DNA from: Chloroflexota bacterium
GTDB taxonomy: Bacteria > Chloroflexota > Anaerolineae > B4-G1 > SLSP01
Direction: 5' to 3'
Length of the DNA: 58,862 nucleotides
Assembly: GCA_019873725.1 (NCBI GenBank)
Contig: JAIOAS010000004.1
Span: 1-58,862, forward strand
How positions within the stretch are numbered: the first letter of the stretch is position 1; the number at the start of each line of letters is the position of its first letter. Under the pieces are notes generated by a model. It made no database searches and was not told the origin of the DNA. It saw only the letters and a list, made by a program, of their open reading frames with translations. The translations under genes and the position numbers were made by a program. Shown here one piece after another: positions 14,732 to 47,582 of the stretch.

Positions 14732-15511
14732 TTAGGTTTCGTTGGCTGTTGACAAAGTCGTGGTTGGGCTGGGTTCCTCCTTTCGGCGCTGCCGTTGGCG
14801 ATAGCTGCTACCGCGGATGGTCAGCGTGTGGGTATGATGGGTCAAACGGTCCAGCGCCGCGCTGGCTAACAGGTCATTGCCAAAGACCTCGGCCCATTCC
14901 TCGAAGGCGCGGTTGCTGGTGATGATGATCGAGGCCCGTTCGTAGCGTTCCGCGATGATCTCGTACAGGTCTTGCGCGGACTGTGAGGTCAGCGGATAGA
15001 GGCCAAAATCATCCAGAATGAGCAAGTCGGCGGTGAGGAGCTTGCTCCACAGTCGGGTATGCCCGCCGCTGGCCTGGGTGGCGTGCAGGCTCTTTAACAG
15101 ATGATGCACCGGATAGGACAAGACGCGCAAGTCGCGTTTCAGGGCTTCGATGCCCAGGCCATTCGCCAGGTGACTTTTCCCCACGCCACTGGGGCCACAC
15201 AACAGGATGTTTTCGTGGCGGGCGATGAAGGTGCAGGTGGCCAGGTCCTGGATCAAGGGGCGATTGACGCCCGGCGCCGCCCCAAAGTCAAAGTGCGCGA
15301 GTGTCTTTTGGCTGTCACAGCCCGATTGCGCCAGGTGCCGCGCCAGACGGCCCTGGTTGCGCCGTTCCAACTCATCGTCGAGCAACACGGCCAGGAATTC
15401 AAGCGGCGCGAGTTGCCGTTCAACAGCTTGCGCGGCCCGCAGGTCGAGGGTTTCCAGCATCCCCGAGAGACGCAGTTGGCGCAGTTTGGGGAGCAGCGGA
15501 TGGGTCATCAT
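14732..15511 (-). CDS. istB: IS21 helper ATPase IstB
   Basis: Starts MMTHPLLPKLRQLRLSGMLETL. Has Walker A GPSGVGKS and Walker B LLILDDFG. The longer track ORF is an upstream extension into istA. Confidence 0.92.
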   Translation of the reverse strand: MMTHPLLPKLRQLRLSGMLETLDLRAAQAVERQLAPLEFLAVLLDDELERRNQGRLARHLAQSGCDSQKTLAHFDFGAAPGVNRPLIQDLATCTFIARHENILLCGPSGVGKSHLANGLGIEALKRDLRVLSYPVHHLLKSLHATQASGGHTRLWSKLLTADLLILDDFGLYPLTSQSAQDLYEIIAERYERASIIITSNRAFEEWAEVFGNDLLASAALDRLTHHTHTLTIRGSSYRQRQRRKEEPSPTTTLSTANET

Positions 15512-17043: not shown

Positions 17044-17338
17044 ATGTATTCGCTCCATGTGGTTTATTCTCCAGATCGCACGGTCTAACTGTCTCTCTGG
17101 AGAGATGATGCCACACGTGCTAGCTTTCACAAACCGTGGCCTACAGCGAGCGACTACGGGTGGCCCACAGCGCGTGACGCTGACTGGCCCACACCGGGCG
17201 ATCATAGGTGGCCTACACCGGGCGGCTATGCCTGGCCCTTACCGGGTGACGATGGCTGGCCTACACCAGGCGGCTATGCATGGCCCAGTATAGACCGGTC
17301 AATCACACTTTTTGCGGGATAGCTTGTACAGCCTGTTG

Positions 17339-20370: not shown

Positions 20371-23300
20371 TCACCCCTCCACCGCTAGCACCCGTTCCCC
20401 CACCACGCTGCACACCCGACCCTGCCACTGCAACGTCCCTTCCACTACCACGAACCGTCCGCGCAGCGCCTCGCGATACGCCGCGAACACCTCCGGGCGC
20501 AGAACCACATTGACCACGCCCCCCTCGTCCTCCAACGCGATGAACGCCGTCCCCTGCGCCGTCGGCGGACGCTGCCGGGCAATGATCACCCCACCCACGC
20601 GCAGCTTCGTCCCGTCAGGCCAGTGGGATAACTCGGCTACCGGCGTCACCCCCATCGCACGCAAGGTCTGCGCCACGGTCTGCACCAGATGCCCTTGCGC
20701 TGTCACCCCCGTCGTCGCCACTTCCATCCACAGGCGCTCGGTGTCGGTGGCCCTGGGAAACGCCGGGCGCGTCCCCGGCTCGACGACGTCCAATTGCGGT
20801 GGCCCACCGATGGTCTCCATTGCTGCGCCCAGGTCCCACACCAACTGCCGCCGTGGGATACGCCACCCGTCGAAGGCCCCGCCCAGGATCAACGCCTCGA
20901 CCGCGCGCCGTCCCAGGCGCGTGCGCTGGCAGAAATCGGTGAGCGAGGTGAACGGCCCGTATTCCCGCGCCGTGACGATCTGCGCCCCGCCGCTTTCGCC
21001 CACGCCCGACACCGTTGCCAGCCCCAGACGGATGCCGGTGCCGTCCGCCGTCGCGGACACGTCCGACGCTTGCACGTCCGCGCCGAAAATCTGTATCCCG
21101 CAGCGCCGCGCCTCGTCCACGATCACCCGTGGCGGATAGAAGCCCATCGGCTGGTGGCGCAGCAGCCCGGCAAAGAAGGCGACCGGGTGGTAGCAGCGCA
21201 GCCACGCCGAGTGATAGGTCAGCACCGCGAAGGCCGCCGCGTGGCTCTTGGGGAAGGCGTAGCTGCCAAACGCCTGCATCTGGGCAAACACCGTCTCGAT
21301 GATCTTTTGCGGTACACCGTTGGCCTGCGCTCCGGCAAAGAACTGCGCCTTGAACTGCTGCAAGGTTTCCTCGGCGCGCTTGCGGCCCAGGCAGCGTCGC
21401 AGTTGCTCGGCCTGCCCTGGCGTAAACCCGGCCAGGTCCCGCGCCACCTTGAGCACCTGTTCCTGGAAGATCATCACCCCCAATGTTTCGGCCAGCGCGG
21501 GCTTGAGCAAGGGGTGAACATAGCGCACCGGCTCTTGCCCATAGCGCCGCCGCAGATATGGGCGTACGACGTTGGCTTGTAGCGGTCCGGGACGGATCAG
21601 CGCGATCTCCACTGTCAGATCGGCAAAACAACGGGGCTGGAAGTTGCGCACCAACTCCGCCTGCGCGCGGCTCTCCAACTGGAACACCCCGATGGTCTCC
21701 CCCCGGCACAACATATCGTAGACCGCCGGATCGTCGAAGGTCAACCGTTCCAGTTCAGGGCGCTCCCCGGTCATCGCCGCCACGATACACACCGCGTCCT
21801 CGATGGCCGACAGCATCCGCAGGCCCAGCAGGTCCACCTTGACGTACCCTGCGTCTTCCAGTCTCTCCTTGTCCCACTGCGTCACGATCCGGCCCGGCAG
21901 TGTCGCCGGTTCCAGGGGAATCAGTGTATTCAAGGCTGGCCCGGAGAGCACCATCCCGCCGTTGTGGATACCCAGGTGACGCGGCAAGCCGTCCAGTTGC
22001 GGGACGAGGCGCAGCAGGTGTTGGAACAAGGGGCTGTCCAGGTCTGCGCCCACTGCCGCTTGCAGTGACGGCGTCGCTGTCACGCTCTGTGGATCGTTGA
22101 CATCCAACGCCCCCACCAGGCGTTCCAACAGCGCCGGAGGCAGACCCAACGCTCGGCCCACATCGCGCACGGCGGAACGCGCGCGGAAGGTTACCAGCGT
22201 ACAAGCCATTGCCGCGTGATCGGGACCGTAACGCTGCATCACGTATTGGATGACCTCTTCACGGCGATCGGCGGCGATGTCGAGGTCAATGTCGGGCGGG
22301 CTGCGGCGCTCCGGTGACAGGAAGCGCTCGAACACCAGGTCGGCAGCCAATGGATCAATCGGGGTAATGCCCAACAGGTAGGCTACCAGCGAATTGGCCG
22401 CGCTGCCGCGGCCCTGGCAGCGGATACCGTGTTCGCGGGCGAAGCGCGCGATGTCCCACACGATGAGGAAGTAGTCGTCCAGACCCATCGCGTGGATGCT
22501 GGTCAACTCGTGTTCCAGTTGGGATAGAGCACGCACGGTGTCCACATAGCGGTCACGGAGTGCAGCCACGCACAACTGGCGCAAATAGGTGCTGGCGACG
22601 CTGCCGTCCGGCGTGGGGAACGCCGGCAACACTTGCGCGCCGTTCGGCAGAAAGGTCACGGCGGACGCACAATGGTCGGCGATGACGCGCGTGTTCGTGA
22701 TCGCTGCCGGCACGTTGGCGAACAAGGCCGCCATTTCGTCGGGGGTGCGGAAGCGGTATTCATCGTTGGGCCGCAGCAGGTCGCCCGCGTCTTCCAGGGT
22801 GACGTGGTGGCGGATACAGGTGAGGACGTCGTGAACCTCACGTTGCTCCGGGTACAGGTAGTGGACATTCCCCGTAGCGACTACCGGCAGGCGCAGGCGG
22901 TCGGCCAGGCCCACCAGGTGACCGAGCAAGCGCATCTCGCCGGGGTGATAGTGGCGTTGGACTTCGATGAAGAAATGCTCCGGCCCGAACAGCCGCGCGT
23001 AGCCCTGGGCTGCATCGAGTGCCGCAGCGTAGTCTCCAGCGACAATCCGCCGCGCCACAGCTCCCTGGCGACACCCCGACAGCGCGATGAGACCCGCCGA
23101 GTGTTCAGCCAGGTCGGCCAATGCCAGCCGCGCCGTACCTTTGGGTTGCCCACGATGCGCCAGGGTGAGGAGTTGGCAGAGGTTGGCATAGCCGTGCGGC
23201 GTCTCGGCCAGCAATGTCAGGTGCGCCGTGCCGTCACCGTCTGCCAGCGTCAATTCCGCGCCCAGCAGCGGCTTGATCCCTGCTGCTTCCGCTGTGCGGA

Positions 23301-23460
23301 TGAAGGGCACGGCCCCATACAGCCCGTCGTGATCGGTGAGGGCCAGCGCGGGCATTTCCAGGGATGCCGCGTGTTCGACCAGGCTCTGCGGCGAGACGAC
23401 GCCGTCCAGCAGGCTGTGACTGGAATGGGCGTGCAGTTCGACGTAGCAGGCGCGGTTCAT
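20371..23460 (-). CDS. dnaE2: Error-prone DNA polymerase III alpha subunit DnaE2
   Basis: Starts with the PHP domain, MNRACYVELHAHSSHSLLDG, and is about 1029 aa. The ATG at 23460 overlaps the imuB stop (ATGA). Confidence 0.9.
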   Translation of the reverse strand: MNRACYVELHAHSSHSLLDGVVSPQSLVEHAASLEMPALALTDHDGLYGAVPFIRTAEAAGIKPLLGAELTLADGDGTAHLTLLAETPHGYANLCQLLTLAHRGQPKGTARLALADLAEHSAGLIALSGCRQGAVARRIVAGDYAAALDAAQGYARLFGPEHFFIEVQRHYHPGEMRLLGHLVGLADRLRLPVVATGNVHYLYPEQREVHDVLTCIRHHVTLEDAGDLLRPNDEYRFRTPDEMAALFANVPAAITNTRVIADHCASAVTFLPNGAQVLPAFPTPDGSVASTYLRQLCVAALRDRYVDTVRALSQLEHELTSIHAMGLDDYFLIVWDIARFAREHGIRCQGRGSAANSLVAYLLGITPIDPLAADLVFERFLSPERRSPPDIDLDIAADRREEVIQYVMQRYGPDHAAMACTLVTFRARSAVRDVGRALGLPPALLERLVGALDVNDPQSVTATPSLQAAVGADLDSPLFQHLLRLVPQLDGLPRHLGIHNGGMVLSGPALNTLIPLEPATLPGRIVTQWDKERLEDAGYVKVDLLGLRMLSAIEDAVCIVAAMTGERPELERLTFDDPAVYDMLCRGETIGVFQLESRAQAELVRNFQPRCFADLTVEIALIRPGPLQANVVRPYLRRRYGQEPVRYVHPLLKPALAETLGVMIFQEQVLKVARDLAGFTPGQAEQLRRCLGRKRAEETLQQFKAQFFAGAQANGVPQKIIETVFAQMQAFGSYAFPKSHAAAFAVLTYHSAWLRCYHPVAFFAGLLRHQPMGFYPPRVIVDEARRCGIQIFGADVQASDVSATADGTGIRLGLATVSGVGESGGAQIVTAREYGPFTSLTDFCQRTRLGRRAVEALILGGAFDGWRIPRRQLVWDLGAAMETIGGPPQLDVVEPGTRPAFPRATDTERLWMEVATTGVTAQGHLVQTVAQTLRAMGVTPVAELSHWPDGTKLRVGGVIIARQRPPTAQGTAFIALEDEGGVVNVVLRPEVFAAYREALRGRFVVVEGTLQWQGRVCSVVGERVLAVEG

Positions 23461-24863
23461 ATCCGCCGCCGTTCCAGATACCAGGCGTCGTTCGCCAGGT
23501 CGCGGAAAACGATCTTCACCTGGCGGTCGCGCAGTTCGACGCGGTAGTAGTCGCGCAGCACGGGCTGTGTCCACCAACGCCGTCTTTCGCGCCAGTGCTC
23601 GTAGACGCGAGCCACGGGGTGAAAGCGTTGATCCCACACCAGGGCCAGCGGTTGCCCGGCAGCGTCAAGCGTGGTCTGGATCGCGCGCGGGCCGGGTGGG
23701 GCCAGCAGCGACGCCACGATGACGATCAGTTCCCCGAAACGCTGGCGCAGCCGCCGCAAGGTCTCCTGCAGGGCGCGCCCACGCGCGTCGCTGGGTGCGT
23801 TGAACAGCGCCAGTTGTGTCGCCGCGAGATACGCCGGACGCAGGGGGTACAGTGTCAGGGTCAGGCGAGTCACAGCGCGGGTAAGGGTGACGCGCATTGC
23901 CAATCCAACGGCCTGACGCTTGAGTTGGTCCACATCGTCCGTGGGCGGTTCGATGGCGGTGCTGACGATGTGTGTTTTCCCGGCTTCGTCTTCGAGCGTC
24001 AGGGTTATGCCCTGCGCCTGATGTTTGCGCTGTACCAGGTCGGTCGCCGCGCTTTCACCCAGCCGTGCAACGCGCGCGACCAGGGGGCCGGCATCGCGTA
24101 ACGGGGGTTCGCACAAGTGACTGCGTTCCACCACCAGGGGCGGGGCATCGGGGTAAACGCCGCGTGGATCGCGCCCGGCGGCTAGATCGTGGAACAGCCC
24201 CGCATCCGCACCGAACTGCCGCACGATGGCGGCGCGTGGCAAGGCCGCCAGTGTGCCCAGGGTGGTAATGCCGAGCAGGTGCAGGCGACGATGCATTTCA
24301 GGGTCGAGGGGCAGGGTCTCGATGGGCAGCGGAGACAGAAAGGTGCGTTCCTGGCCCGGCTGCACCGGACACCAGCCGTGAGGCCGGGCGGCACGCGCGG
24401 CTTGTTCGGCGGTGAAGCGTTGAGGAGCCAGGCCGATGCGGGCGTCCAGCGTGCTGACTTGCAGCACTTCCCGCGCCAGTGACCGGGCCAGTTCGACGTC
24501 TGCTTGCGCCGGATCGCGCCCTTGGGGGACACGCAGATCCGACACATCGGCAAACAGGTAGCCCAACCCCGCCGTCTCGACGCGGTCGGTGTGCTGGCGC
24601 AGCACGGCATCCAGCGCGGCGTGCGCTTCGCAGTAGACGGCTTCCCGCGCCGGGACGAAGGTTGCGCCGGGGCACACCTGCGCCGCGCGCGCCAGGCGCA
24701 TTCCCAGGCGCACCCCGGCAGAGGCGGCATCGGGGGAGCAGTCCAGCACCGCGCCGGGGTCCCACGGGCGTCCTCCAACGATGAGCGGCGCGGTATCCAG
24801 GGCTCCGGCTTGCTGTTCGACCTGAACCGGCAGATGAGCAGCGAGCAGGCAGATGATTTTCAT
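23457..24863 (-). CDS. imuB: Y-family polymerase-like ImuB
   Basis: Starts MKIICLLAAHLPVQVEQQ and has Y-family palm/little-finger-like features. It is translationally coupled to dnaE2, the canonical cassette order. Confidence 0.8.
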   Translation of the reverse strand: MKIICLLAAHLPVQVEQQAGALDTAPLIVGGRPWDPGAVLDCSPDAASAGVRLGMRLARAAQVCPGATFVPAREAVYCEAHAALDAVLRQHTDRVETAGLGYLFADVSDLRVPQGRDPAQADVELARSLAREVLQVSTLDARIGLAPQRFTAEQAARAARPHGWCPVQPGQERTFLSPLPIETLPLDPEMHRRLHLLGITTLGTLAALPRAAIVRQFGADAGLFHDLAAGRDPRGVYPDAPPLVVERSHLCEPPLRDAGPLVARVARLGESAATDLVQRKHQAQGITLTLEDEAGKTHIVSTAIEPPTDDVDQLKRQAVGLAMRVTLTRAVTRLTLTLYPLRPAYLAATQLALFNAPSDARGRALQETLRRLRQRFGELIVIVASLLAPPGPRAIQTTLDAAGQPLALVWDQRFHPVARVYEHWRERRRWWTQPVLRDYYRVELRDRQVKIVFRDLANDAWYLERRRI

Positions 24864-24888
24864 TGTCTGACTTGGCTCCAACGATATA

Positions 24889-25267: not shown

Positions 25268-27418
25268 ATGACACTGCGTATTATTGGCAAGTATGAACTC
25301 CTGGAAGAGGTGGGCCGCGGCGGTTTTGCCGTGGTGTACCGGGCGCGCGATACCACGTTGGATCGCGTGGTGGCCCTCAAGGTGCTGCACCCGCACTGGG
25401 TGACCGATCCCCAATTTGCCACGCGCTTCCGCCAGGAGGCGCGCGCCGCGGCGAACCTGCGCCACCCCAATATCGTCACCGTCCACGACACGGGTGAAAC
25501 CGACGGCCAGCTCTACATTGCGATGGCTTACCTGCCGGGACGCACATTGCACGACTTGCTGGAAGAACAGGGCGCGCTGCCCCTGGAAGCGGCCTTGCCC
25601 ATTTTGGAACAACTGGCTGACGCCCTGGACTACGCTCACGCGCAAGGCGTGGTCCACCGCGACGTGAAACCGCTCAACGTGATCGTGGAAGACACTGCGC
25701 GCGGCCCGCGTGCCACGTTGATGGACTTCGGCCTGGTCAAAGCGTTGGAGAGCAGCACGGCATTGACCTCGCAAGGCACGCTGCTGGGATCGCCGGAGTA
25801 TATGGCTCCGGAGCAGGCCGACCCCAACCGCCACGCTGAGATCGGACCGGCCACCGACCGCTACGCCCTGGGCATCGTGGCCTACCGGATGCTCGCCGGG
25901 CGCGTGCCCTTCCCCGGCAACACGCCCGGCACGCTCAACGCGCACCTGAACCTGAAGGTGCCCGATCCACGGGATTTTGTGCGGGACTTACCGCCGGAGG
26001 TGACCGCGGCCGTGCTGACGATGCTGGCGAAGGCCCCCGCCGACCGTTTCCCAACGGCGAACGCATTTGTGGCCCGGCTGCGCGAGGCTCAGGAAGCCGC
26101 GAGGCAGCGACAAACCCGCGAGACGCACCTGGCATCGCAGTACCAGATGCTCCAGGCTGCCATACAGCAAGGCGCCTGGGACAATGCCATACAGATAGGG
26201 CAGCGCATCCAGCAGAGCGCCCCCGATTACGCCGATGTGACGCGCCTGATAAGTCTGGCGCAGAAGAAACACCAGGAAGCGGAGGCCGCGCGGGCGGCGG
26301 CGCAGGCGCGCCGGGAAAACGAAGCGCGCCTGGCGCCTTTGCGCGCGCAGGTGCAGGCTGCTGTTGACCGGCAGGACTGGCCCGAAGTGCTGCGCATCGG
26401 TGGGCAAATCCAGGCGCTTGAGCCGGACGATCCCGTTGCCGCCCAATGGATTGCCCAGGCGCAAGAACAAGTGCGCCGCCCCGTACGAACGCCGCCCTCT
26501 GGTCCGACGCGAGCGCCCAGCCCTGTGCGCCAACCACAGCCCCTGCCTGACTGGCTCAAACCGGTGGGGATTGGCCTGGCGGCGGTGGTTGTGCTGGGGG
26601 TGTTGATTGGCGTGCTTGGTCCGCCGCTGTGGGAGGCCTTTTTTGCAGCTCAAACGCCTACACCTGAGCCGATGCCAGCTTTCTCTTTGCCCCCTTGTGA
26701 AACCGCTGGCGCGACCTGGACCCGCCCGACGGACGGGATGACGATGGTGTGCGTGCCCGGCGGCACATTCCAGATGGGCAGCGAGACCGGTGCTGATGAT
26801 GAAAAGCCGGTACATCCAGTGACGTTGAGCGCATTCTGGATTGACCAGACTGAGGTTACCAACGCGCAGTACGGGGAATGTGTGATAGACGGGGTATGCA
26901 CAGCTTCAACCTATGCCGACAATGCTGATTTTAACGGGAACCAGCAGCCTGTGGTTGGCATAGACTGGCACAATGCGGAGAAGTATTGCGCCTGGGCCGG
27001 CGGGCAGTTGCCGACCGAAGCGCAATGGGAATACGCGGCGCGGGGGCCAGAGGGGTATGTTTATCCGTGGGGCAATGTCGGGCCTGATTGTACTAAAGCA
27101 AATTACTGGGGTAAAGAGAATGGTTGTGTAGGAAAGACGTCACCGGTCGGTTCTTATCCGGAAGGGAAAAGCTGGGTTGGCGCGTTAGATATGGCCGGCA
27201 ACGTATGGGAATGGACGGCGGATTGGTACGATAAGTATCTTTCTGAGTCTCAGACGGATCCTGAAGGGCCGACAGAAGGACAATCCAAGGTGGTGCGTGG
27301 GGGTTCCTGGAGCCACAGCGTGAACCACGTGCGCGCTACGAACCGGAACGGGAACCCGCCAACGAACTCGAACTACTACCTGGGGTTTCGGTGTATGGTG
27401 GTACGCGCCCAGGATTAA
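25268..27418 (+). CDS. Transmembrane Ser/Thr protein kinase with C-terminal FGE-sulfatase/C-type-lectin-fold domain (DGR target 1)
   Basis: Kinase motifs GRGGFAVVY, HRDVKPLN, DFG and SPEYMAPE. One TM segment (VGIGLAAVVVLGVLIGVLGPPLW). FGE-sulfatase motifs (MVCVPGGTFQMGS, QLPTEAQWEYAARG, VVRGGSW). VR1 is at the C-terminus. Confidence 0.92.
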   Translation: MTLRIIGKYELLEEVGRGGFAVVYRARDTTLDRVVALKVLHPHWVTDPQFATRFRQEARAAANLRHPNIVTVHDTGETDGQLYIAMAYLPGRTLHDLLEEQGALPLEAALPILEQLADALDYAHAQGVVHRDVKPLNVIVEDTARGPRATLMDFGLVKALESSTALTSQGTLLGSPEYMAPEQADPNRHAEIGPATDRYALGIVAYRMLAGRVPFPGNTPGTLNAHLNLKVPDPRDFVRDLPPEVTAAVLTMLAKAPADRFPTANAFVARLREAQEAARQRQTRETHLASQYQMLQAAIQQGAWDNAIQIGQRIQQSAPDYADVTRLISLAQKKHQEAEAARAAAQARRENEARLAPLRAQVQAAVDRQDWPEVLRIGGQIQALEPDDPVAAQWIAQAQEQVRRPVRTPPSGPTRAPSPVRQPQPLPDWLKPVGIGLAAVVVLGVLIGVLGPPLWEAFFAAQTPTPEPMPAFSLPPCETAGATWTRPTDGMTMVCVPGGTFQMGSETGADDEKPVHPVTLSAFWIDQTEVTNAQYGECVIDGVCTASTYADNADFNGNQQPVVGIDWHNAEKYCAWAGGQLPTEAQWEYAARGPEGYVYPWGNVGPDCTKANYWGKENGCVGKTSPVGSYPEGKSWVGALDMAGNVWEWTADWYDKYLSESQTDPEGPTEGQSKVVRGGSWSHSVNHVRATNRNGNPPTNSNYYLGFRCMVVRAQD
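27287..27412 (+). repeat. DGR variable repeat VR1
   Basis: 126 nt collinear with the TR. There are 11 mismatches; 10 fall on TR adenines and 1 is a T-to-G. Confidence 0.93.
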
Positions 27419-27546
27419 AAATCATTGTCCTCTGTCCATTGAAAATCTGTCCTTTTCTTGCTGGAGCAGGCATCTGGTAGGGGCGCAAGTTCCTCCGGGG
27501 GGAGTCCAGAGGGGCGTAGCCCCTCTGGACGCGGCAAAATGAAAAT

Positions 27547-28632
27547 TTGGGGTCTGCTGTGAAAACGTACAAAAACCTGTACCCGCAAATCTACGCTTTC
27601 GACAATCTCTACCAGGCGTTCCGTGAAGCGCGCAAGGGCAAGCGCAGCAAGCCGGAGGTCGCCGCGTTTGAGTATCACCTGGAGCCGGAACTGTGGCAAT
27701 TGCAGCAAGAGCTGCAGGAGCACACGTACCAGCCCGGTCCCTATCACCACTTCTACATCATCGAACGCAAAAAGCGCAAAATCAGCGCCGCGCCCTTCCG
27801 CGACCGGGTCGTGCATCACGCGCTGTGCCGCGTCATCCAACCCATTTTCGAGGCGCGCTTCATCCACGATTCCTACGCCTGCCGCGTGGGAAAGGGCACA
27901 CACCGCGCCGCCGACCGCGCGCAGGAGTTTGCGCGGCGCAACGCCTACTGCCTCAAAGGCGATGTGCAACAGTTCTTCCCGTCGATTGACCACGCCCTCC
28001 TCCGCGAGATCCTCGCCCGGCGCATCGCCGATACGGAGGTGTTGTGGCTGATTGACCAGATTCTGCATAGCGGCGCGGGCGTGCTTGATAGCGAGTACAC
28101 AATGCAGTGGTTCCCCGGCGACGATCTGTGGGCGGGATTGCGTCCACGCGGTTTGCCGATCGGCAACCTCACCAGCCAGTTTTGGGCCAACACCTACCTC
28201 GACCGGTTGGATCAATTCGTCAAACGCGAGCTGAAATGCGCGGCCTATCTCCGCTACGCGGATGATTTCTTGCTTTTTCACGCCGACAAAGCGGTGTTGC
28301 ACGGCTGGCGCGAGGCGGTGATCGCCTGCCTGGCGGAGCTGCGGCTCAAGCTGCACGAGCGCAAATCGGTGGTCTTTCCCACAGCCGACGGCATCGACTT
28401 CGTGGGCTACCGCATCTTCGCGGATCACCGGCGGCTGCGCAAAGACAACGTGCGCGCGTTCGCCCACCGCCTGCGCACATTCCGGGACGCTTACCGGCGG
28501 GGTGAAGTGACGCTAAGCGCGATTCAGCCGTCGATCCAATCCTGGATCGCGCACGCCGCCCACGCGGACACCTACCGCCTGCGCGAGCGGCTGTTTGCGG
28601 AAGTCACATTTTCAGGCGGAGTCCGATCATGA
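27547..28632 (+). CDS. DGR reverse transcriptase
   Basis: Has the YADDFLLF catalytic motif, the DGR-type motif 4 LPIGNLTSQ, and a KTYKNLYPQIYAFDNLYQAFREARKGK N-terminus like Brt. The start may be GTG at 27559. Confidence 0.92.
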   Translation: MGSAVKTYKNLYPQIYAFDNLYQAFREARKGKRSKPEVAAFEYHLEPELWQLQQELQEHTYQPGPYHHFYIIERKKRKISAAPFRDRVVHHALCRVIQPIFEARFIHDSYACRVGKGTHRAADRAQEFARRNAYCLKGDVQQFFPSIDHALLREILARRIADTEVLWLIDQILHSGAGVLDSEYTMQWFPGDDLWAGLRPRGLPIGNLTSQFWANTYLDRLDQFVKRELKCAAYLRYADDFLLFHADKAVLHGWREAVIACLAELRLKLHERKSVVFPTADGIDFVGYRIFADHRRLRKDNVRAFAHRLRTFRDAYRRGEVTLSAIQPSIQSWIAHAAHADTYRLRERLFAEVTFSGGVRS

Positions 28633-28997
28633 GTGGACCGCAGAGCGGATACCCGATCTTCCCTAAAACGCACGATTTGATCAAGTGGCTGATGGAGCAT
28701 ACCGCCGGCTTTCCCCGCAACCAGCGCTTTATGCTGGCCAAACGGGTGCAGGATGCCGTGATGGATTTTTACGAATGTATCATTGCCGCGCGCAAAGTCC
28801 CGCTGCGGCAACGGGCTGAAATGTTGTTGCGCGCGGACGTGGCCCTGGAAACATTGCGCCTGCATCTGCGGCTGTGTTACGACTTGAAATTGTCCAGCGC
28901 GGATCAATACAAGTACGCCTCGCAGAGTGTCAACGAGATCGGCAAGCTGTTGGGCAAATGGATCCAGGGCGTCAAAGCGGGCAACGAGAGCCGTTAG
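28629..28997 (+). CDS. avd: Avd-like accessory variability determinant (four-helix-bundle / 23S rRNA IVS family)
   Basis: 122 aa. YPIFPKTHDLIKWLMEHTAGFPRNQRFMLAKRVQDAVMDFYECII is typical of the family. It overlaps the RT stop by ATGA. Confidence 0.85.
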   Translation: MSGPQSGYPIFPKTHDLIKWLMEHTAGFPRNQRFMLAKRVQDAVMDFYECIIAARKVPLRQRAEMLLRADVALETLRLHLRLCYDLKLSSADQYKYASQSVNEIGKLLGKWIQGVKAGNESR

Positions 28998-29042
28998 CCG
29001 GCCGTGCGCCGCTCACGACTCTGGTTGTGGGGATTGGGCCAT

Positions 29043-29168
29043 AAGGTGGTGCGTGGGGGTTCCTGGAACAACAACGAGAACAACGTGCGCTCTACGAACC
29101 GGAACAGGAACACGCCAACGAACACGAACAACAACCTGGGGTTTCGGTGTATGGTGGTACGCGCCCAG
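29043..29168 (+). repeat. DGR template repeat (TR)
   Basis: Non-coding copy of the last ~42 codons of the target domain. It contains 12 AAC codons. Its 24-nt 5' end and 34-nt 3' end are identical to both VRs. Confidence 0.93.
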
Positions 29169-29359
29169 CGCTCCCCGATCGGAATGTTTCGTGCTCACGG
29201 GTGCGAAACCGGAATTTGGGGAATCCAGGCCTGGTTCCCGGTCGTACGGCTGGCATGGCCAGTCGTGCGGCCAAAGATCAACCGGCCCCGCCCCTCGTGG
29301 TAGGCAACGAAGCCCGGGGCGGGGCCACCCTGAAAGTATAACGTGAAGAGGACGATTCT

Positions 29360-31684
29360 ATGGCGACACACATCGGCAAATACGAGATCATCGAAGAAAT
29401 CGGCCGGGGCGCATTCTCCGTCGTCTACAAAGCGCGCGACGCGCGTTTGGGTGAGATGGCGCTGAAAGTGCTCAAGGCGGACTACACCAGCGAGCCGGAA
29501 GTCGTCACGCGCTTCCTGGAAGAGGCGCGCAAGACCTTCGGGTTGCGGCACCGCAATATCGTGCGCATCTACGCGGTGGATGAAGATCAGGGCGTGCCCT
29601 ACATCGCGATGGAATACTTGCCCGGCGGCGCATTGACCGACCGGCTGGGCGGCGACCCACTGCCGCTGGATGCGGCGCTGGCCATTCTGGGGCAGGTCGC
29701 CGCGGCATTGGATTATGCCCACCAGCGCAAGCTGGTGCATCGCGACGTCAAACCCTCGAACATCCTGTTCGATGATGAAGGCCAGGCGGTGTTGGTGGAT
29801 TTTGGCCTGGTCAAATCCCTGGTGGCCAGCCGGCTGACCACCGCCGAGACGATCCTGGGCACGCCGCACTATATGGCGCCGGAGCAATTCACAGCCAAAG
29901 ACACCGTGGATGCGCGCGCCGACATCTACAGTTTAGGCGTCGTAGCCTACGAGATGCTCACCGGGAAGCGGCCTTTCGAGGCTGATACTACGGCGGCGGT
30001 GCTCATGGCGCACCTCAACGAAAGCCCACCCGATCCCCGCGCGGCCAATCCAGGCCTGGATGCCGGTGTGTGCGATGCCATACGCAAAGCATTGGCGAAA
30101 TCGCCGGACGGCCGCTTCGACAGCGCCGGCGCCTTTGTGCACAGCCTGCGCCAGGCCTGGAGCGACGTCAAGCAAACCCGGCAGACGGAATCCACCCTGG
30201 ATGCGCTTTACACCCAGGCACAAACTGCGCTGAAAGCCGAACAGTGGGCCGAACTGGCCCGCCTGTGCCTGGAAATGCGCGATCTCAATCCCGACTTTCG
30301 CGATGTCACCACACTGCTGGCGCTGGCCACAGGCCGGGTCCTCGAAGAAGACAAAAAGCGCCAGCAAGAACTGGCCTATCGCCAGCAATATGCCGATGCG
30401 CTGCAATTGTTGGCAGACCATGCCTATGCCGAAGCGATCGCGGCATTAGAGGCGCTGCCTCCCGGCTTCGCCGACGTGGCCCAACAGGTGCAGCAAGCAC
30501 GCGCCGGACAGATCAAGGTCGAGCTGTACGCCCAGGCCAAAACGAAATTGGCAGAACACCTGTACGCAGAGGCCTGCACCGACCTGCTCACGTTGCTGGA
30601 ACAGGACGCCGATTATGAAGACGCCGCCGCTTGCCTGCGCGCCGCCACAGCGGGCGCCCTGGAACACCTGAACGCCGTGCAGTCCGAATTGGAAACGGCG
30701 CGCGCGTCGTTAGCGCGCAGCCAGGGGGAGAACCAGGAGGCGCGCGCCCGTGCGACCGCCTTGGAAGCCCAGCTTGCGGAAGCCACTGCCGCGCACAAAC
30801 GTCTGGAAAAAGCCTTGCGGGAGGCCCAAAAGCGGACAAGCGATTTGGAAACCCAGACGCGGGAGGCGCAGGCCCAAGTCTCCGCGTATGACCAGGTGCT
30901 GCTGGCGCTGGAAGACCGCGCGCACGAAAAAGCCCTGTCCCTGGCCGAACCCCTGGCCGGCAACGACCTGCCAGGGATTGTCCGTGTGTTAGCGCGTTTG
31001 CAGGCGCTCGCGTCTGCCGCACAGCCAAAGCCGCCCACGGCGAAAGGCGATGTGTGGGTGCATCCCAAAGACGGGAAAACGATGGTGCGCGTCCCGGCAG
31101 GTGATTTCCTGTATGGCGATGACAAAGAAAAGCGCACGCTGCCGGAATTCTGGATCGACAAGACGCCGGTGACGAACGCTGAATACGCTCAGTTTGTGCA
31201 AGCAACAGATCACAAGCCGCCGCAACATTGGCAGGGGAAAACACCGCCAAAGGGAATGGCTGATCATCCGGTCACCTATGTGTCCTGGCACGATGCCGTA
31301 GCTTACGCAGAATGGGCCGGGAAGCGCTTGCCTACCGAGGAAGAATGGGAAAAGGCAGCGCGTGGGACGGACGGGCGTGTGTATCCGTGGGGCAATCAAC
31401 AACCAACACGTGAGCTTTGTAACTTCGATGGAAACGAGAAAGGTACAACGCCGGTAGGCAAATATTCTCCACAAGGTGATAGCCCGTATGGATGCGTGGA
31501 TATGGCGGGGAATGTCTGGCAGTGGACGGCGAGTGATTATGACAAGCACAGCAAGGTGGTGCGTGGGGGTTCCTGGGACTTCAACGGGAACAGCGTGCGC
31601 TCTACGTACCGGAGCAGGGACACGCCCTCGGACACGATCTACTCCCTGGGGTTTCGGTGTATGGTGGTACGCGCCCAGGATTAA
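29360..31684 (+). CDS. Ser/Thr protein kinase with coiled-coil region and C-terminal FGE-sulfatase/CLec domain (DGR target 2), no TM segment seen
   Basis: Kinase motifs GRGAFSVVY, HRDVKPSN, DFG and TPHYMAPE. A long Ala/Glu/Gln-rich helical region follows. FGE-sulfatase motifs include RLPTEEEWEKAARG and VVRGGSW. VR2 is at the C-terminus. Confidence 0.92.
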   Translation: MATHIGKYEIIEEIGRGAFSVVYKARDARLGEMALKVLKADYTSEPEVVTRFLEEARKTFGLRHRNIVRIYAVDEDQGVPYIAMEYLPGGALTDRLGGDPLPLDAALAILGQVAAALDYAHQRKLVHRDVKPSNILFDDEGQAVLVDFGLVKSLVASRLTTAETILGTPHYMAPEQFTAKDTVDARADIYSLGVVAYEMLTGKRPFEADTTAAVLMAHLNESPPDPRAANPGLDAGVCDAIRKALAKSPDGRFDSAGAFVHSLRQAWSDVKQTRQTESTLDALYTQAQTALKAEQWAELARLCLEMRDLNPDFRDVTTLLALATGRVLEEDKKRQQELAYRQQYADALQLLADHAYAEAIAALEALPPGFADVAQQVQQARAGQIKVELYAQAKTKLAEHLYAEACTDLLTLLEQDADYEDAAACLRAATAGALEHLNAVQSELETARASLARSQGENQEARARATALEAQLAEATAAHKRLEKALREAQKRTSDLETQTREAQAQVSAYDQVLLALEDRAHEKALSLAEPLAGNDLPGIVRVLARLQALASAAQPKPPTAKGDVWVHPKDGKTMVRVPAGDFLYGDDKEKRTLPEFWIDKTPVTNAEYAQFVQATDHKPPQHWQGKTPPKGMADHPVTYVSWHDAVAYAEWAGKRLPTEEEWEKAARGTDGRVYPWGNQQPTRELCNFDGNEKGTTPVGKYSPQGDSPYGCVDMAGNVWQWTASDYDKHSKVVRGGSWDFNGNSVRSTYRSRDTPSDTIYSLGFRCMVVRAQD
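31553..31678 (+). repeat. DGR variable repeat VR2
   Basis: 126 nt collinear with the TR. All 15 mismatches fall on TR adenines. Confidence 0.93.
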
Positions 31685-31829
31685 CAATCATTGTCCCCCT
31701 GTCCATTGATTCTCTGTCTTTTTCTGGCTGTAGCGAGTATCTGGTCTGGCGCCAGTCTCGCCCCTGGGGTCTGGGGCGTTAGCCCCAGCCGCGCGAAAAT
31801 TGAATTTTGAGGCATCGAAGGAACATTGA

Positions 31830-34715
31830 ATGGGCTTCTGTTCACACTGTGAAACCTATCTCCCGCCAGAGACAGCCGCCTGCCCGGTGTGTGGCGTTTC
31901 TGCACCCGCACCGGCAGCGCTTGTACCCGCCTGGGCCGTACCCTTGCCCTCATCGCTATCCGGTGCGCCGGTGGCATTCGCTGGGGGGATACTGGCGGCC
32001 AGCCACACGGAGCGCGCTGCCGTCCTGGAATGGCGCGCTATCGCAAACGGGCACAGGGGGTGGCACTGCACCTTCGACAACACCTTGATCACCGGCATGG
32101 TCGCCACCGGAGAACGCCTCCTGGTCAGCCTCACCAGCACAGACCCGCTGCACGGACAGGGCGCGCTCGTGGCCCTGGATGCGGCAGGGCACGAGGTCTG
32201 GCGCTGGACGACAGAAATACAGCACATCTCTGCCCCCGTTATCGCCGGAGATGCCGTCTACGTCACTGCCGGCGCCGGTCATCTGGTCGTCGTGGATATC
32301 ACCACCGGCGCGGAACAAGGGCGCTGGGCGTTGCCCGTTTCCGTGTCGCTCGCCGCGCCCGCCGTCGCCGGGGAAACGCTCTACCTGCCGTGCCGCGGGC
32401 CGCACCTGCTGGCCGTCACCCTCTCCGGCGCGCTGCGCTGGCGCTTCGACGCTCCGCTGCCGGAAAACGCCTGGCTGCACCACACGCCAGCGCTTTGGCA
32501 GAATACCGTCTTTGCCGCCAGCAGCGCCGGGCTGATCTTCGCGTTGCAGGCGGATAGCGGCATAGTGCGCTGGCAGGTCCCGGTCGGCCCGCTGGACCGG
32601 CCCCTGAGTCCGCCCGTCACAGACGGCGAACGCCTCTACGTGGGCGCGCGGGATGGTCTGCACGCCCTGACCCTGAACGGCGAACCGCTCTGGCATTTCC
32701 CCACCGCACAGAAAATCACCGCTGCACCGGTCGTCGTGGGTGGTGTGGTGTATGCCGCGTGTTGGGACCGCTGCCTCTACGCGCTGGATGCCGTCACGGG
32801 CCGGAAATTGTGGCGCTATCCGGTGGAACGGCACATTGAAGTCGCGCCGCTCATTTTCTCGGCCGATACCGATCAGGCCTACGCCGTGATCGCCGATGCG
32901 GGCGGCACGCTCACCGCGCTCATCCGCCCTCGCAGCGCTGCCGAACAGGAGGCCGCCGGGCAATGGCAAGAAGCCGCGTGCGCCTACGCCGCGCTGGATC
33001 AACCCGCGCGTGGAGCCGCGCTCCTGGAAGCGCACGGCCAACCGTACCAGGCCGCGCAATTGTGGGAAGTCGCCGATGAACCGGAGCGGGCAGCCATACA
33101 GTACGAAATAGCCGGACATTGGGAGCAAGCCGCCGGTCTGTGGGCCAGGCTAGGACAACCCTTGCGCCAGGCGGAAGCGTTGCAACAACACGCGCGTTCC
33201 CTGGCAGAGGGGAAGACGCCATTGGACATCCAGGCCGCGCTCTGGGAGCAGATCGCCGCCCTCTACGCCGAACACAATCAGCCCACATTGGCAGAACACT
33301 GCCGTCGCGAGGTCGCCCGCTGCCGTCAGCAACCGGTCATCGCCTTGACCATTGAACACAGCGGATTGGTGCTGGGTGAATGGTCGTTGGTGCACTTCAT
33401 CGTGCACAACGCCGGGTTTGGTCCGGCGCGCAATCTGGTCATCCACACCGACAAGGCGTGCTTCGTCGGACAGGTGACGCAGACGCAGCGCATCACCACC
33501 TTGAAGGCGGGGGAGCAAGAAGTGCGCACGCTCGACCTCAAGCCGTTGGAAGCCGGCAGTGCGCCATTGCGAGTAACGGTGGAGTTCACCGATCAGTCCG
33601 GTAAGCCGATGCCCTGGGAGAAGACTATCCACCTGCCTGTGGCGCGGGAAGCTGCCGCGCGCGCAACGCAGACACATACGCAGGTCTTCCGCGCCACGCG
33701 CTTTGTGGACCTGGAAATCCGCATCTTCAAACGCGCGGAGGCGGGCTATCCCGTCGAAATCACGCTGGCCGGGCAGCAGCACTTCGCCGGTATCATTGCC
33801 GCAGACCTGGCCCACTGGATTCCCTCCGCCGATACCACAGTCGATGGTCGCGCCTTGTTCGCTGCGCTCACCGCCGACCCGGCACTGGCGAATGCCTGGG
33901 CGCGCTGTCGCGGGCAGGCTCCACAGCGGCGGGTCCGCCTGTGGCTCGATGTGGCTGCGCCAGAACTGCACAGTATTCCGTGGGAATGTCTATGTGCAGA
34001 CACGCTCCCCCTCGCGGCAGACGCGGCCACGCCTTTCTCACGCTACCTGCCCACGCAGGACGAATGGGGCGCTGTCATCACCACCCGTCCGGTGCGCGTC
34101 CTGGCCGCTATCGCCAATCCCACCGACCTGGCGAAGTACAATCTGGCCAGGCTGGATGTGGAGCAGGAACAGGCACTTGTCACAAGTGCGTTGAGCGGCG
34201 TAGATAACTTTCAGGTGGACTTCCTCCCTGTGCCGGTGACGTTGGCGCGCCTGGAAGAACGCTTGCGTGCCGGGTATCATCTGCTGCACCTGGTCGGTCA
34301 CGGCGTCTACAATCCCCGCCAACACACAACGGCTTTGTGCTTGCAGGGTAAAGCCGGCCAAACGCAGCTTGTCACCGACGCAGAGTTCGGTGCAATGTTA
34401 ACCCGCCAGGGGATACGCCCACGTTTGGTCGTGCTGGCCGCCTGTCACGGCGCGACGCGCTCCACCGCCGATGCGTGGCGCGGGATAGCGCCCGCACTGG
34501 TGCAGGCCGGCGTCCCGGCTGTCGTGGCGATGCAGGGCGCAGTCGCAATACCGACAGCGCAGGCGTTCACCGCCGCATTCTACCGCGCGCTGGCCGAGCA
34601 CGGCGCGGTCGACCTGGCCCTCAACCAGGCCCGCAGCCTGCTCATCAGCCAGGGCTGCTGCGATGTTGCCCTGCCGGTGCTTCTGATGCGACTGCAGGAT
34701 GGGCAGATCGTGTGA
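31830..34715 (+). CDS. Multidomain CHAT (caspase-HetF) protease: zinc ribbon, PQQ-like beta-propeller, TPR-like helices, Ig/CARDB-like domain, CHAT
   Basis: CSHCETYLPPETAACPVCG is the zinc ribbon. Repeated G.VY..a..G.L.AL....G...W blades form the propeller. The CHAT dyad context is HLLHLVGHG and LVVLAACHGA. Confidence 0.8.
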   Translation: MGFCSHCETYLPPETAACPVCGVSAPAPAALVPAWAVPLPSSLSGAPVAFAGGILAASHTERAAVLEWRAIANGHRGWHCTFDNTLITGMVATGERLLVSLTSTDPLHGQGALVALDAAGHEVWRWTTEIQHISAPVIAGDAVYVTAGAGHLVVVDITTGAEQGRWALPVSVSLAAPAVAGETLYLPCRGPHLLAVTLSGALRWRFDAPLPENAWLHHTPALWQNTVFAASSAGLIFALQADSGIVRWQVPVGPLDRPLSPPVTDGERLYVGARDGLHALTLNGEPLWHFPTAQKITAAPVVVGGVVYAACWDRCLYALDAVTGRKLWRYPVERHIEVAPLIFSADTDQAYAVIADAGGTLTALIRPRSAAEQEAAGQWQEAACAYAALDQPARGAALLEAHGQPYQAAQLWEVADEPERAAIQYEIAGHWEQAAGLWARLGQPLRQAEALQQHARSLAEGKTPLDIQAALWEQIAALYAEHNQPTLAEHCRREVARCRQQPVIALTIEHSGLVLGEWSLVHFIVHNAGFGPARNLVIHTDKACFVGQVTQTQRITTLKAGEQEVRTLDLKPLEAGSAPLRVTVEFTDQSGKPMPWEKTIHLPVAREAAARATQTHTQVFRATRFVDLEIRIFKRAEAGYPVEITLAGQQHFAGIIAADLAHWIPSADTTVDGRALFAALTADPALANAWARCRGQAPQRRVRLWLDVAAPELHSIPWECLCADTLPLAADAATPFSRYLPTQDEWGAVITTRPVRVLAAIANPTDLAKYNLARLDVEQEQALVTSALSGVDNFQVDFLPVPVTLARLEERLRAGYHLLHLVGHGVYNPRQHTTALCLQGKAGQTQLVTDAEFGAMLTRQGIRPRLVVLAACHGATRSTADAWRGIAPALVQAGVPAVVAMQGAVAIPTAQAFTAAFYRALAEHGAVDLALNQARSLLISQGCCDVALPVLLMRLQDGQIV

Positions 34716-45046: not shown

Positions 45047-47582
<2,536 letters not shown>

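Follow-up and report, generated by a model that had tools for sequence, protein, structure and literature searches.

A diversity-generating retroelement with a single template repeat between two Ser/Thr kinase genes of a Chloroflexota bacterium

The window, by which we mean the whole 58,862-nt stretch of DNA analysed, very probably carries an intact chromosomal diversity-generating retroelement (DGR) of a member of the Chloroflexota, in which one cassette of reverse transcriptase (RT), Avd and template repeat (TR) templates two sensor kinases. The element extends over ~6.5 kb, with its parts in the order target 1 (ending in a first variable copy of the repeat, VR1), RT, avd, TR and target 2 (ending in a second, VR2), all on the plus strand (Table 1), as the initial annotation, made from the sequence alone, had set out. 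The central claim of that annotation, that the DGR is complete and has one RT-Avd-TR cassette flanked by the two kinase genes, is supported by the repeats, the protein domains, the Avd score, the RT match and the RNA stem.

Table 1. Features of the DGR and of the gene that follows it, with positions in the window.
Feature	Position	Strand	Basis or description
Target gene 1 (716 aa)	25268..27418	+	Pfam Pkinase E=1.6e-47; FGE-sulfatase E=4.5e-57
Predicted single TM helix of target 1	26564..26632	+	aa 433-455, VGIGLAAVVVLGVLIGVLG...; Kyte-Doolittle 19-residue mean 2.68
VR1 (final 42 codons of target 1, followed by Asp-stop)	27287..27412	+	126 nt collinear with TR
VR1 3′ flank	27413..27530	+	degenerate YCTG repeats, then 12-bp GC-rich hairpin
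DGR reverse transcriptase (357 aa, GTG start)	27559..28632	+	RVT_1 E=8.6e-20
avd accessory gene (122 aa)	28629..28997	+	NCBIfam NF033474 DivGenRetAVD 97.6 bits, cut-off 80; Pfam bAvd E=5.8e-16
TR (template repeat, non-coding)	29043..29168	+	126 nt; 36 adenines; 12 AAC codons in the reading frame of the targets
Structured spacer after TR (presumed 'Sp' equivalent)	29169..29359	+	fold prediction; inverted repeats
Candidate Avd-binding stem-loop of the DGR RNA	29186..29209	+	10-bp stem, CACG tetraloop, starts 18 nt past TR
Target gene 2 (774 aa)	29360..31684	+	Pkinase E=1.2e-48; FGE-sulfatase E=5.7e-53
VR2 (final 42 codons of target 2, followed by Asp-stop)	31553..31678	+	in-frame copy of TR
VR2 3′ flank	31679..31788	+	YCTG repeats, then GC hairpin CTGGGGC-GTTA-GCCCCAG (31771-31788)
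PQQ-like beta-propeller and CHAT (caspase-like) protease gene (961 aa)	31830..34715	+	PQQ_2 E=3.4e-28; CHAT E=4.9e-28

A repeat search of the window found exactly three in-register copies, TR, VR1 and VR2, which are identical to one another over a 24-nt 5′ end and a 34-nt 3′ end. Exact searches of the window with the 24-nt 5′ end and with 33 nt of the 3′ end each returned three sites, at the positions of the three copies, and none of 100 shuffled controls held any match. Base-by-base comparison gave 11 mismatches between VR1 and TR, 10 of them at TR adenines and one a T>G at TR 29091, and 15 between VR2 and TR, every one (15/15) at a TR adenine; all are confined to a 68-nt tract, TR 29067-29134. 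The adenine bias is significant by the hypergeometric distribution both over the repeat (36 A in 126 nt; P=1.2e-5 for VR1 and 5.4e-10 for VR2) and within the 68-nt tract alone (31 A; P=1.1e-3 and 6.8e-7, respectively). The initial annotation had reported a 126-nt TR collinear with the last ~42 codons of both kinases, the identical 24-nt and 34-nt ends, 12 AAC codons in TR and, from an alignment made by hand, the same mismatch counts, and all of these were reproduced.

TR adenines fall at codon positions 1 or 2 in 34 of 36 cases, a stop codon is unreachable from any variable codon of the TR-templated region, and the 18 variable codons give ~4e17 protein variants per target. The contig is a short-read, metagenome-type assembly; because the three copies share 34 nt, the joining of a VR core to its 3′ flank is assembler-dependent, and, with no more than 24 nt shared at the 5′ end, each VR core is anchored to the gene upstream of it.

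The best solved relative of the RT in a PDB search is the DGR RT of a Bordetella phage (8ub7; E=3.2e-49, 171.5 bits), followed by a group II intron RT (E=2.2e-17, 66.7 bits). Within the LPIGNLTSQ and YADD motifs to which the initial annotation had drawn attention, PIGNLTSQ corresponds to PIGSLTSQ, and YADD to YMDD, in the alignment with the Bordetella phage enzyme; placement of the RT in the DGR clade rests on the PDB search, these motifs and the repeats of its relatives. The GTG start and the length of 357 residues are those of the Logan gene call. The avd gene, also noted earlier as overlapping that of the RT, does so by 4 nt at the RT stop codon, and its product is recognized by the Avd family model.

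A stem-loop lies shortly after TR, and the RNAalifold consensus for 17 loci, picked with their windows by eye around a YACGG motif, has compensatory changes at 9/9 pairs. In the same set, 89% of the stem-loop cells are paired, compared with 61% in shuffles, none of 500 shuffles reaching 89%, and with 37–59% in slid controls. An Avd-binding stem-loop has been described in 207 of 278 Avd-type DGRs (bioRxiv 10.1101/2023.10.23.563531), and the element at 29186-29209 matches it and is likely to be the Avd contact. The spacer contains further hairpins at 29240-29272 and 29284-29326; in the second of these, as read by eye, one C-G pair is replaced by T-A in a relative, the JGI contig L082. By homology with the Bordetella phage element, a complex of RT and Avd would bind an RNA made up of the avd 3′ end, TR and the structured spacer, this RNA would be reverse transcribed with random nucleotides placed opposite template adenines, and the cDNA would be substituted for the homologous 126-nt VR with which the 3′ end of one or other kinase gene is furnished.

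Judged by their motifs, both targets are intact Hanks-type (eukaryotic-like) Ser/Thr kinases: GxGxxG, ALK, HRDVKPLN, DFG and APE are present in target 1, and the Hanks catalytic motifs are complete in both. Target 1, for which the 716-residue form is the sequence on record, begins with a Hanks Ser/Thr kinase, continues through a TPR-like or coiled stretch and one TM helix, and finishes with an FGE-sulfatase-type C-type-lectin (CLec) fold ending in VR1; target 2 has a Hanks kinase at its N terminus and an FGE-type lectin fold, ending in VR2, at its C terminus, with a long coiled-coil region between them. The Pkinase and FGE-sulfatase matches in both agree with the fusion of an FGE-sulfatase/CLec fold to kinase domains that had been proposed. 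The two had also been called paralogs, which stands, but they are just 44–45% identical, in both domains, and differ in predicted topology, two points that had been missed. No TM helix was found in target 2, where the highest Kyte-Doolittle 19-residue mean is 1.30. The helix of target 1 would put the variable domain outside the cytoplasm, because the N-terminal kinase has no signal peptide. Target 1, with its lectin fold across the membrane helix, would be an outward-facing receptor kinase; target 2 would be a soluble protein with a coiled coil that uses the fold as a sensor in the cytoplasm, and a ligand on the variable tip would control kinase output. A domain search found no NTPase, MoxR/vWA, STAND or EAD domain in either target, and the STAND-NTPase antigen-sensor class of targets (the clade of Doré et al. 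with NACHT/nSTAND targets) was rejected for both kinases because they have no NTPase domain. The target kinases match PADLOC (PD-T4-6) in a generic way, and the score is higher for another, third kinase of the window that is not a target.

The nearest relatives of the RT, at 55–67% identity, are from Anaerolineae and Caldilineales, and its relatives are mostly Chloroflexota. Adenine-biased TR/VR pairs were found at 64 of the 80 loci encoding these relatives, among which the order target-RT-avd-TR is conserved. More than half of the targets in this RT clade (14/26) are NACHT proteins, and TIR, KAP NTPase and trypsin are found among them too; none of the 26 is a kinase. The L082 cassette, with the TR spacer region included, is 93.5% identical to that of the window, but L082 has no second kinase, and a PQQ gene stands directly after its TR spacer. 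The L082 homologue of the PQQ-CHAT gene that follows target 2 here is 45% identical in amino acid sequence (E=4e-32), and another relative (L005) has a CHAT match downstream of avd. The contig of the window is chromosomal and carries genes of conflict-system type, CHAT and a gene for an EAD7/Death-like/NB-ARC protein; no EAD, vWA or MoxR component was found adjoining the cassette. The PQQ-CHAT gene is a possible downstream partner of the target kinases.

The role that we favour, tentatively and at close to but below an even chance, is to sense ligands that are foreign or changing in an anticipatory way. Anticipatory sensing in this RT clade would usually fall to NACHT/STAND targets, and the kinases may act with the adjacent CHAT protease. 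It is quite plausible, if less than probable, that variation instead tunes regulation and is no part of immunity, the kinases responding to endogenous substrates or environmental small molecules without any link to defence or to CHAT. The cyanobacterial kinase-CLec architecture has been interpreted in that way (PMC7517822), and the absence of MoxR/vWA, STAND and EAD from both targets and the non-specific nature of the PADLOC kinase matches point in the same direction. The predominance of conflict-system domains among the targets of the clade argues the other way, though indirectly, as do, again indirectly, the PQQ-CHAT gene adjoining the cassette both here and in L082, the CHAT match in L005 and the presence of the EAD7/Death-like/NB-ARC protein on the contig. 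Anticipatory sensing could be carried further, to a two-compartment 'antigen receptor' in which an outward receptor kinase and a cytoplasmic kinase share one repertoire and signal by phosphorylation, possibly to the CHAT protease, as the kinase counterpart of the NACHT/STAND sensors of the clade, the second target having been recruited recently by way of a portable module of VR, TTCTG repeats and hairpin that would be a previously undescribed DGR target-recognition signal; taken as a whole, we consider this improbable.

That the element diversifies its targets we infer from fixed, adenine-specific differences in one assembly. The kinases of the window are singletons in the protein collection, no variant closer than 80% identity was found in the protein and contig collections, and exact scans with the TR 3′ end gave no match. 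Logan unitigs of SRR16606022 are uninformative on heterogeneity, because they break where the 31-mer graph must break at a three-copy repeat. The single assembly and the failure to find variant alleles in the collections searched would suit a fossil DGR, formerly active but no longer diversifying, whose VRs are now ordinary fixed sequences, as would the one non-adenine difference between VR1 and TR and flank repeats that are degenerate by comparison with those of relatives; the T>G change opposite TR 29091 may also mean that the last homing into VR1 is old. We nevertheless regard a fossil as unlikely. Neither the RT nor avd is truncated: the RT has its catalytic YADD as well as the SQ motif, and the Avd score exceeds the curated cut-off. 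The stem-loop close to TR is intact. Furthermore, only one of the 26 VR-TR differences, in two 126-nt comparisons, is non-adenine and the constant ends are identical in three copies, which argues against long neutral drift.

Because the 34-nt 3′ ends of TR and the VRs are identical, there being no distinction of IMH and IMH* inside the repeats, any cue for direction must sit in the flank. The first 70 nt of the VR1 and VR2 flanks are 80% identical, compared with 53% for the coding DNA just upstream, and contain three and four copies of TCTG, respectively, whereas only 0.66% of background 70-nt windows have at least three; clade-wide, at least three occur in 23 of 29 VR flanks and in 0 of 25 TR flanks. 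The VRs of the clade are followed by TTCTG repeats and then by a GC hairpin. In the window, a GC hairpin lies ~92 nt past both VR1 and VR2 and none follows TR; the arms of the first (27504-27515 and 27519-27530, loop GTA) are 100% complementary. The CTG repeats here are degenerate and spaced 13–15 nt apart, compared with 7–8 nt in relatives, and the GC hairpin of phage DGRs lies 4–34 bp from the VR. The VR flank is a putative target-recognition element, and a repeat flank specific to the clade may replace the IMH; the YCTG repeats and GC hairpin after both VRs, absent after TR, would probably set the flow from TR to VR and never the reverse.

It is distinctly unlikely that just one of the targets is live, whether target 2 is a recent insertion that brought a VR and flank module with it or target 1 is an old copy into which cDNA has ceased to be written. 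Such an asymmetry would fit the 93.5% identical L082 cassette without a second kinase and the substitution counts (adenine, 15 in VR2 and 10 in VR1; non-adenine, none and one), but the 24-nt and 34-nt homology ends are perfect in VR1 and VR2 alike, the flank signature and hairpin stand at equal spacing on both, and in three relatives (L015, L025 and L030) the cassette is flanked by two VRs, one to either side and each adenine-diversified. A downstream VR was detected in a fourth relative (L007).

In both kinases, the variable codons would lie on the ligand-binding face of an FGE-type lectin fold without the FGE catalytic cysteines. A sequence search matched the fold to TvpA, the variable protein of a Treponema DGR (2y3c, E=2.7e-16). 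Alignment to 6muj placed Ser and Val in target 1 at the catalytic, copper-binding Cys pair of FGE (CxxxxC), the first of the two positions being a TR-templated variable codon, and on this replacement a catalytic FGE identity of the target 1 domain was rejected. That the C-terminal domains are working FGE or sulfoxide-synthase-type enzymes, with repeats arising from gene conversion among paralogs, is extremely improbable, for although FGE enzymes are the strongest matches of the lectin domain (E=1e-33) and similarities to EgtB, SenA and GldK were seen, all below the NCBIfam cut-offs, target 1 has lost the catalytic Cys pair, TR, the third copy, does not code for protein and sits next to RT-avd, and the differences have an adenine-specific direction that gene conversion does not produce.

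Kinase targets, two-target cassettes and Chloroflexota DGRs are already published. Among DGR-internal targets in cyanobacteria, kinase-CLec proteins are the commonest type (Vallota-Eastman et al. 2020, PMC7517822); the initial annotation, too, had pointed to kinase-linked targets in cyanobacterial surveys. A kinase target architecture, 'b12', was catalogued in 2018 (Wu et al., PMC5758913). The novelty of a two-kinase arrangement, which had been called unusual, was overstated: two-target cassettes make up 50 of 372 DGRs, or 13% (Wu et al. 2018, PMC5758913), paired targets in the DGRs of filamentous Chloroflexi were described in 2024 (Doré et al., PMC10907252), and the three relatives named above have a VR on both sides. 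What is locally unusual is the presence of kinase targets in an RT clade with none among 26, the lack of kinase 2 from a 93.5% identical relative, and VR flanks of TTCTG and GC hairpin.

The locus is a clean, complete and compact DGR directed at signalling proteins instead of phage fibres or adhesins of the cell surface. With one TR for a predicted membrane receptor kinase and a soluble kinase, it offers a natural system for asking what the lectin domains sense and how binding leads to phosphorylation; and since its RT clade normally diversifies NACHT-type immune sensors, it is a natural domain swap with which to ask if kinases do the same job. The TTCTG-repeat and hairpin VR flank and the covarying stem-loop after TR are candidates for the poorly understood steps of target recognition and cDNA integration.

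Among known systems, the prototype, the DGR of Bordetella phage BPP-1 (mtd-avd-TR-brt), has an RT of the same family, an Avd and an adenine-specific flow from TR to VR. In both elements the VR stands at the C terminus of a C-type-lectin fold and is followed by a GC-rich inverted repeat, and a stem-loop comes shortly after TR. However, the BPP-1 element is phage-borne and diversifies a tail fibre, whereas the present element is chromosomal, is ordered target-RT-avd-TR-target and has two targets, both signalling kinases; the shared 34 nt hold no IMH/IMH* difference, and the hairpin lies ~92 nt from the VR, with YCTG repeats between, instead of 4 bp. The cyanobacterial kinase-CLec DGRs (PMC7517822; 'b12', PMC5758913) resemble it in having, inside the DGR locus, an N-terminal Hanks kinase with a C-terminal CLec/FGE fold that carries the VR, in having several targets or paralogs per TR and in their proposed sensory or regulatory role. 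The likeness is one of target architecture; the host here belongs to the Chloroflexota and the nearest RTs are those of Chloroflexota DGRs with mostly NACHT targets; in addition, one target here is predicted to span the membrane and the other to be soluble. The DGRs of multicellular bacteria with putative antigen sensors (Doré et al. 2024, PMC10907252; Kaur et al. 2020, PMC7159879) likewise belong to a lineage of filamentous bacteria, with two CLec/FGE targets to a cassette, some predicted in the cytoplasm and some outside it, and with CHAT, Death-like and NB-ARC genes nearby; the NACHT domain in 14 of the 26 targets of the RT relatives is a further likeness. Here, however, a protein kinase replaces the STAND NTPase or MoxR-vWA as the module on the variable lectin domain, and no EAD, vWA or MoxR was found next to the cassette. 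Finally, TvpA of Treponema denticola (2y3c) has the same FGE-sulfatase subtype of C-type-lectin fold with a C-terminal VR, yet it is a lipoprotein without an enzymatic N-terminal domain, whereas in the present targets the fold forms the C-terminal part of a kinase.

A repeat search between 24 and 33 kb returned one three-copy, in-register family, with copies starting at approximately 27286, 29042 and 31552, and its 24-nt 5' segment and 33-nt 3' segment each occur at exactly three sites in the 58.9-kb window, namely in the template repeat (TR) and the two variable repeats (VR1 and VR2), which none of 100 shuffles matched. Compared with the TR base by base, VR1 shows 11 mismatches, 10 at TR adenines and the other a T>G change opposite TR position 29091, and VR2 shows 15, all of them (15/15) at TR adenines; every mismatch is confined to 29067-29134. 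The TR contains 36 A in its 126 nt, and the hypergeometric probability of this adenine bias is 1.2e-5 for VR1 and 5.4e-10 for VR2 over the whole TR, or 1.1e-3 and 6.8e-7, respectively, within the A-rich 68-nt tract only. The TR frame matches that of both target genes, with 12 AAC codons and 34 of the 36 adenines in codon positions 1 or 2; the 18 variable codons would give approximately 4e17 protein variants, and none of them can turn into a stop codon. The three in-register copies, the adenine-directed mismatches and the 12 AAC codons described in the initial annotation are thus confirmed.

Compared with solved structures, the RT is closest to that of the Bordetella phage DGR (bRT; 8ub7, E = 3.2e-49); matches to RTs of group II introns and retrons are much weaker (E = 2e-17 or weaker). 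The PIGNLTSQ and YADD motifs of the window RT align with those of bRT. The Avd scores 97.6 bits against the NCBI curated DGR Avd cut-off of 80 bits. Loci encoding RT relatives are mostly from Chloroflexota (Anaerolineae, Caldilineales and Chloroflexia; 55-67% identity), and a simple detector, able to pick up both TR-VR pairs of the window itself, found adenine-biased repeat pairs at 64 of 80 such loci; the order target-RT-avd-TR is kept across the Chloroflexota group. These results support the earlier reading of the region as a complete DGR.

Features of the DGR and its neighbourhood
Feature	Position	Strand	Description
DDE_5 transposase	3554-4963		IS element near the DGR
ORF	12262-13731		Large, no Pfam match
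istA/istB pair	14732-17205		IS21-type; IS element near the DGR
imuB-like and dnaE2-type genes	20371-24881	minus	Y-family polymerase and error-prone Pol III alpha; divergent from target 1
Target 1	25268-27418	plus	716 aa; VR1 at 27287-27412
VR1 flank	27413-27500	plus	3 TCTG, degenerate, spacing 13-15 nt
RT	27559-28632	plus	Probable GTG start at 27559, 357 aa; independent gene call agrees
avd	28629-28997	plus	Overlaps RT stop by 4 nt
TR	29043-29168	plus	
Stem-loop	29186-29209	plus	10-bp stem, CACG tetraloop, 18 nt past TR
Target 2	29360-31684	plus	774 aa; VR2 at 31553-31678
VR2 flank	31679-31770	plus	4 TCTG, degenerate, spacing 13-15 nt
PQQ-CHAT gene	31830-34715	plus	Next gene after target 2; 961 aa: Cys-rich zinc-ribbon-like N-terminal start, PQQ-type beta-propeller, C-terminal CHAT caspase-like protease
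Third Hanks Ser/Thr kinase	39659-41971		770 aa, without FGE domain or VR copy; 8 kb downstream of the DGR
ORF	45240-47582		Large, no Pfam match
ORF	48732-52700		Large (1322 aa), no Pfam match
EAD7/bacterial Death-like/NB-ARC (STAND) gene	52755-58743	minus	With three flanking TPR genes

No Rfam family matched anywhere in the window. The stem-loop that follows the TR was recovered in an alignment with 16 relatives and covaries strongly, with compensatory changes at 9/9 predicted pairs; paired cells make up 89%, compared with 61% in shuffles (0/500 matching) and 37-59% in slid controls, figures that carry the bias of loci and windows picked by eye. Among the 16 related loci the stem is 9-10 bp long, is capped by a YACG tetraloop and lies 15-45 nt after the TR. 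Of 278 Avd-type DGRs, 207 are reported to have an Avd-binding stem-loop immediately past the TR (bioRxiv 10.1101/2023.10.23.563531); the window stem-loop matches this element and probably has the same Avd-binding role in the DGR RNA.

Both targets combine Pkinase and FGE-sulfatase domains, with every Hanks catalytic motif present, and share 44-45% identity per domain, their middle regions being unrelated. In target 1, a single, strongly hydrophobic helix separates the kinase from the lectin domain (residues 433-455, hydropathy 2.68); it is absent from target 2, where hydropathy reaches a maximum of 1.30 and a long coiled-coil stretch occupies that place; from this difference, the variable domain is predicted to face outward in target 1 and to be cytoplasmic in target 2. 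At the sequence level, the C-terminal domain matches both FGE structures and TvpA, a DGR variable protein of Treponema (E = 2.7e-16), and these matches settle its fold. The FGE catalytic cysteines are replaced by Ser and Val, the first position being a TR-templated variable codon; with both cysteines missing, a role as an FGE enzyme was rejected and, judged on its sequence, the domain is a binding fold. Ligand binding would control kinase output, and the CHAT protease encoded downstream may be linked to the kinases. Matches of the target kinases to the PADLOC models PD-T4-6 and mad6 were rejected as evidence for a defence function, because the non-target third kinase scores higher.

The closest relative seen, locus L082 (JGI 3300037851), shares 93.5% DNA identity with window positions 28890-29305 (avd 3' end, TR and spacer). 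There, a gene homologous to the PQQ gene (45% amino acid identity) comes immediately after the TR spacer and the second kinase is lacking, so that not even this relative preserves the two-kinase layout. The cassette is far better conserved than the neighbouring gene, a gap that suggests either mobility of the cassette or an insertion or deletion of the kinase-2 module, and the second target has probably been gained or lost recently.

Kinase domains were found in none of 26 target proteins of the RT's Chloroflexota relatives, which include 14 NACHT, two TIR, one KAP NTPase and one trypsin protein. VRs lie on both sides of the cassette in three relatives (L015, L025 and L030), and a VR was detected downstream of the cassette in L007. 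Kinase-FGE fusions do occur at several Chloroflexota loci, sometimes as tandem arrays, and no RT lies within 8 kb of them; those of the Anaerolineae MAGs L084, L085 and L103 may represent either undiversified paralogs or targets at a distance from their cassette. Locus L035, where kinases lie near an RT, was rejected as a kinase-targeting DGR, no TR/VR pair being detected and the RT match being partial. Positions 300-3443 of L149 (from a Caldilineaceae MAG, the same genome as L025) carry the 3' end of an RT, avd and a TR, then a target-1-like transmembrane kinase with no FGE match in its C-terminal region, so that a kinase here adjoins a DGR cassette without being its target. By eye, the C-terminus of this kinase looks to be of the periplasmic-binding-protein type.

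The TR and VRs part exactly after ...CGCGCCCAG, and both VRs then run into a common non-coding sequence. The two flanks share 80% DNA identity over the first 70 nt and 72% over the first 125 nt; between the two targets, identity is 53% in the stretch coding for the FGE domain immediately before the VR and 48% in the 125 nt that come after the flank. Both flanks close with a GC hairpin starting approximately 92 nt past the VR, with a 12-bp stem and GTA loop after VR1 and a 7-bp stem and GTTA loop after VR2. In the Chloroflexota relatives, NNTTCTG repeats fill the 70 nt after every VR, with 91 of 122 spacings giving a period of 7-8 nt, and a G-rich hairpin usually comes next. VR flanks of 70 nt contain on average 3.8 TCTG (n = 29, 27 from relatives at loci L002-L034 and the window's two), compared with 0.24 for TR flanks (n = 25) and 0.25 for random windows, and at least three TCTG are present in 23/29 VR flanks, 0/25 TR flanks and 0.66% of background windows. 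TTCTG repeats also follow the second, downstream targets of L015, L025 and L030, and therefore go with the VR rather than with the RT gene. Among more distant RT relatives, none of 49 VR flanks carries the repeats (0/49 with at least three TCTG); these flanks instead have a GNRA-type hairpin near the VR. Efficient homing in BPP-1 needs a hairpin located 4-34 bp beyond the VR (PMC3240598), whereas the spacer in the window and its clade is longer and filled with repeats, and appears to be a clade variant. The NNTTCTG-repeat flank may represent an undescribed target-recognition element; targeted literature searches returned no description of a repeat-filled VR spacer, although this absence is not proof that none exists.

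Exact scans of genome and metagenome contig collections for the TR/VR 3' constant segment, run to find population variants, gave no match. Both kinases are singletons in protein clusters, and no homologue of the C-terminal domain exceeds 62% identity for target 1 or 80% for target 2, with no RT near the 80% homologue on its contig. Logan unitigs of SRR16606022 match the window at 100% identity and stop exactly at the points where a 31-mer graph must break at the repeats; these breaks are purely repeat-related and uninformative on heterogeneity.

The window is the entire 58,862-nt NCBI contig, and its genes include a dnaB helicase; no phage structural protein was matched by Pfam among the ORFs scanned. 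A damage-inducible mutagenesis cassette (imuB-like/dnaE2) adjoins the targeted hypermutation cassette, which is probably a coincidence. A CHAT match was also found downstream of avd in the relative L005, and the EAD7/Death-like/NB-ARC and TPR cluster is of the conflict-system type typical of multicellular bacteria. Promoter-like sites cluster only in the divergent imuB/kinase-1 region and no terminator-like sites were found between genes, in scans too weak to define transcripts. GC skew on the plus strand is weakly positive (0.00 to 0.045), which is compatible with, but not decisive for, targets co-directional with replication.

The initial annotation had considered two kinases around one cassette unusual; its DGR interpretation holds, but the novelty was overstated. 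Kinase-CLec proteins are the commonest DGR-internal target type in cyanobacteria, with a proposed sensory or regulatory role (PMC7517822), and both the kinase architecture and two-target cassettes (13% of 372 DGRs) have been catalogued (PMC5758913). DGRs of multicellular bacteria, filamentous Chloroflexi included, have also been described, their paired CLec targets being assigned to the cytoplasm or periplasm and associated with CHAT, TIR, kinase and STAND domains (PMC10907252; PMC7159879). The window DGR is therefore of a known kind. Its local peculiarities remain: kinase targets inside an otherwise NACHT-targeting RT clade, the predicted pairing of a membrane target with a soluble one and, probably, the recency of the second target's gain or loss.
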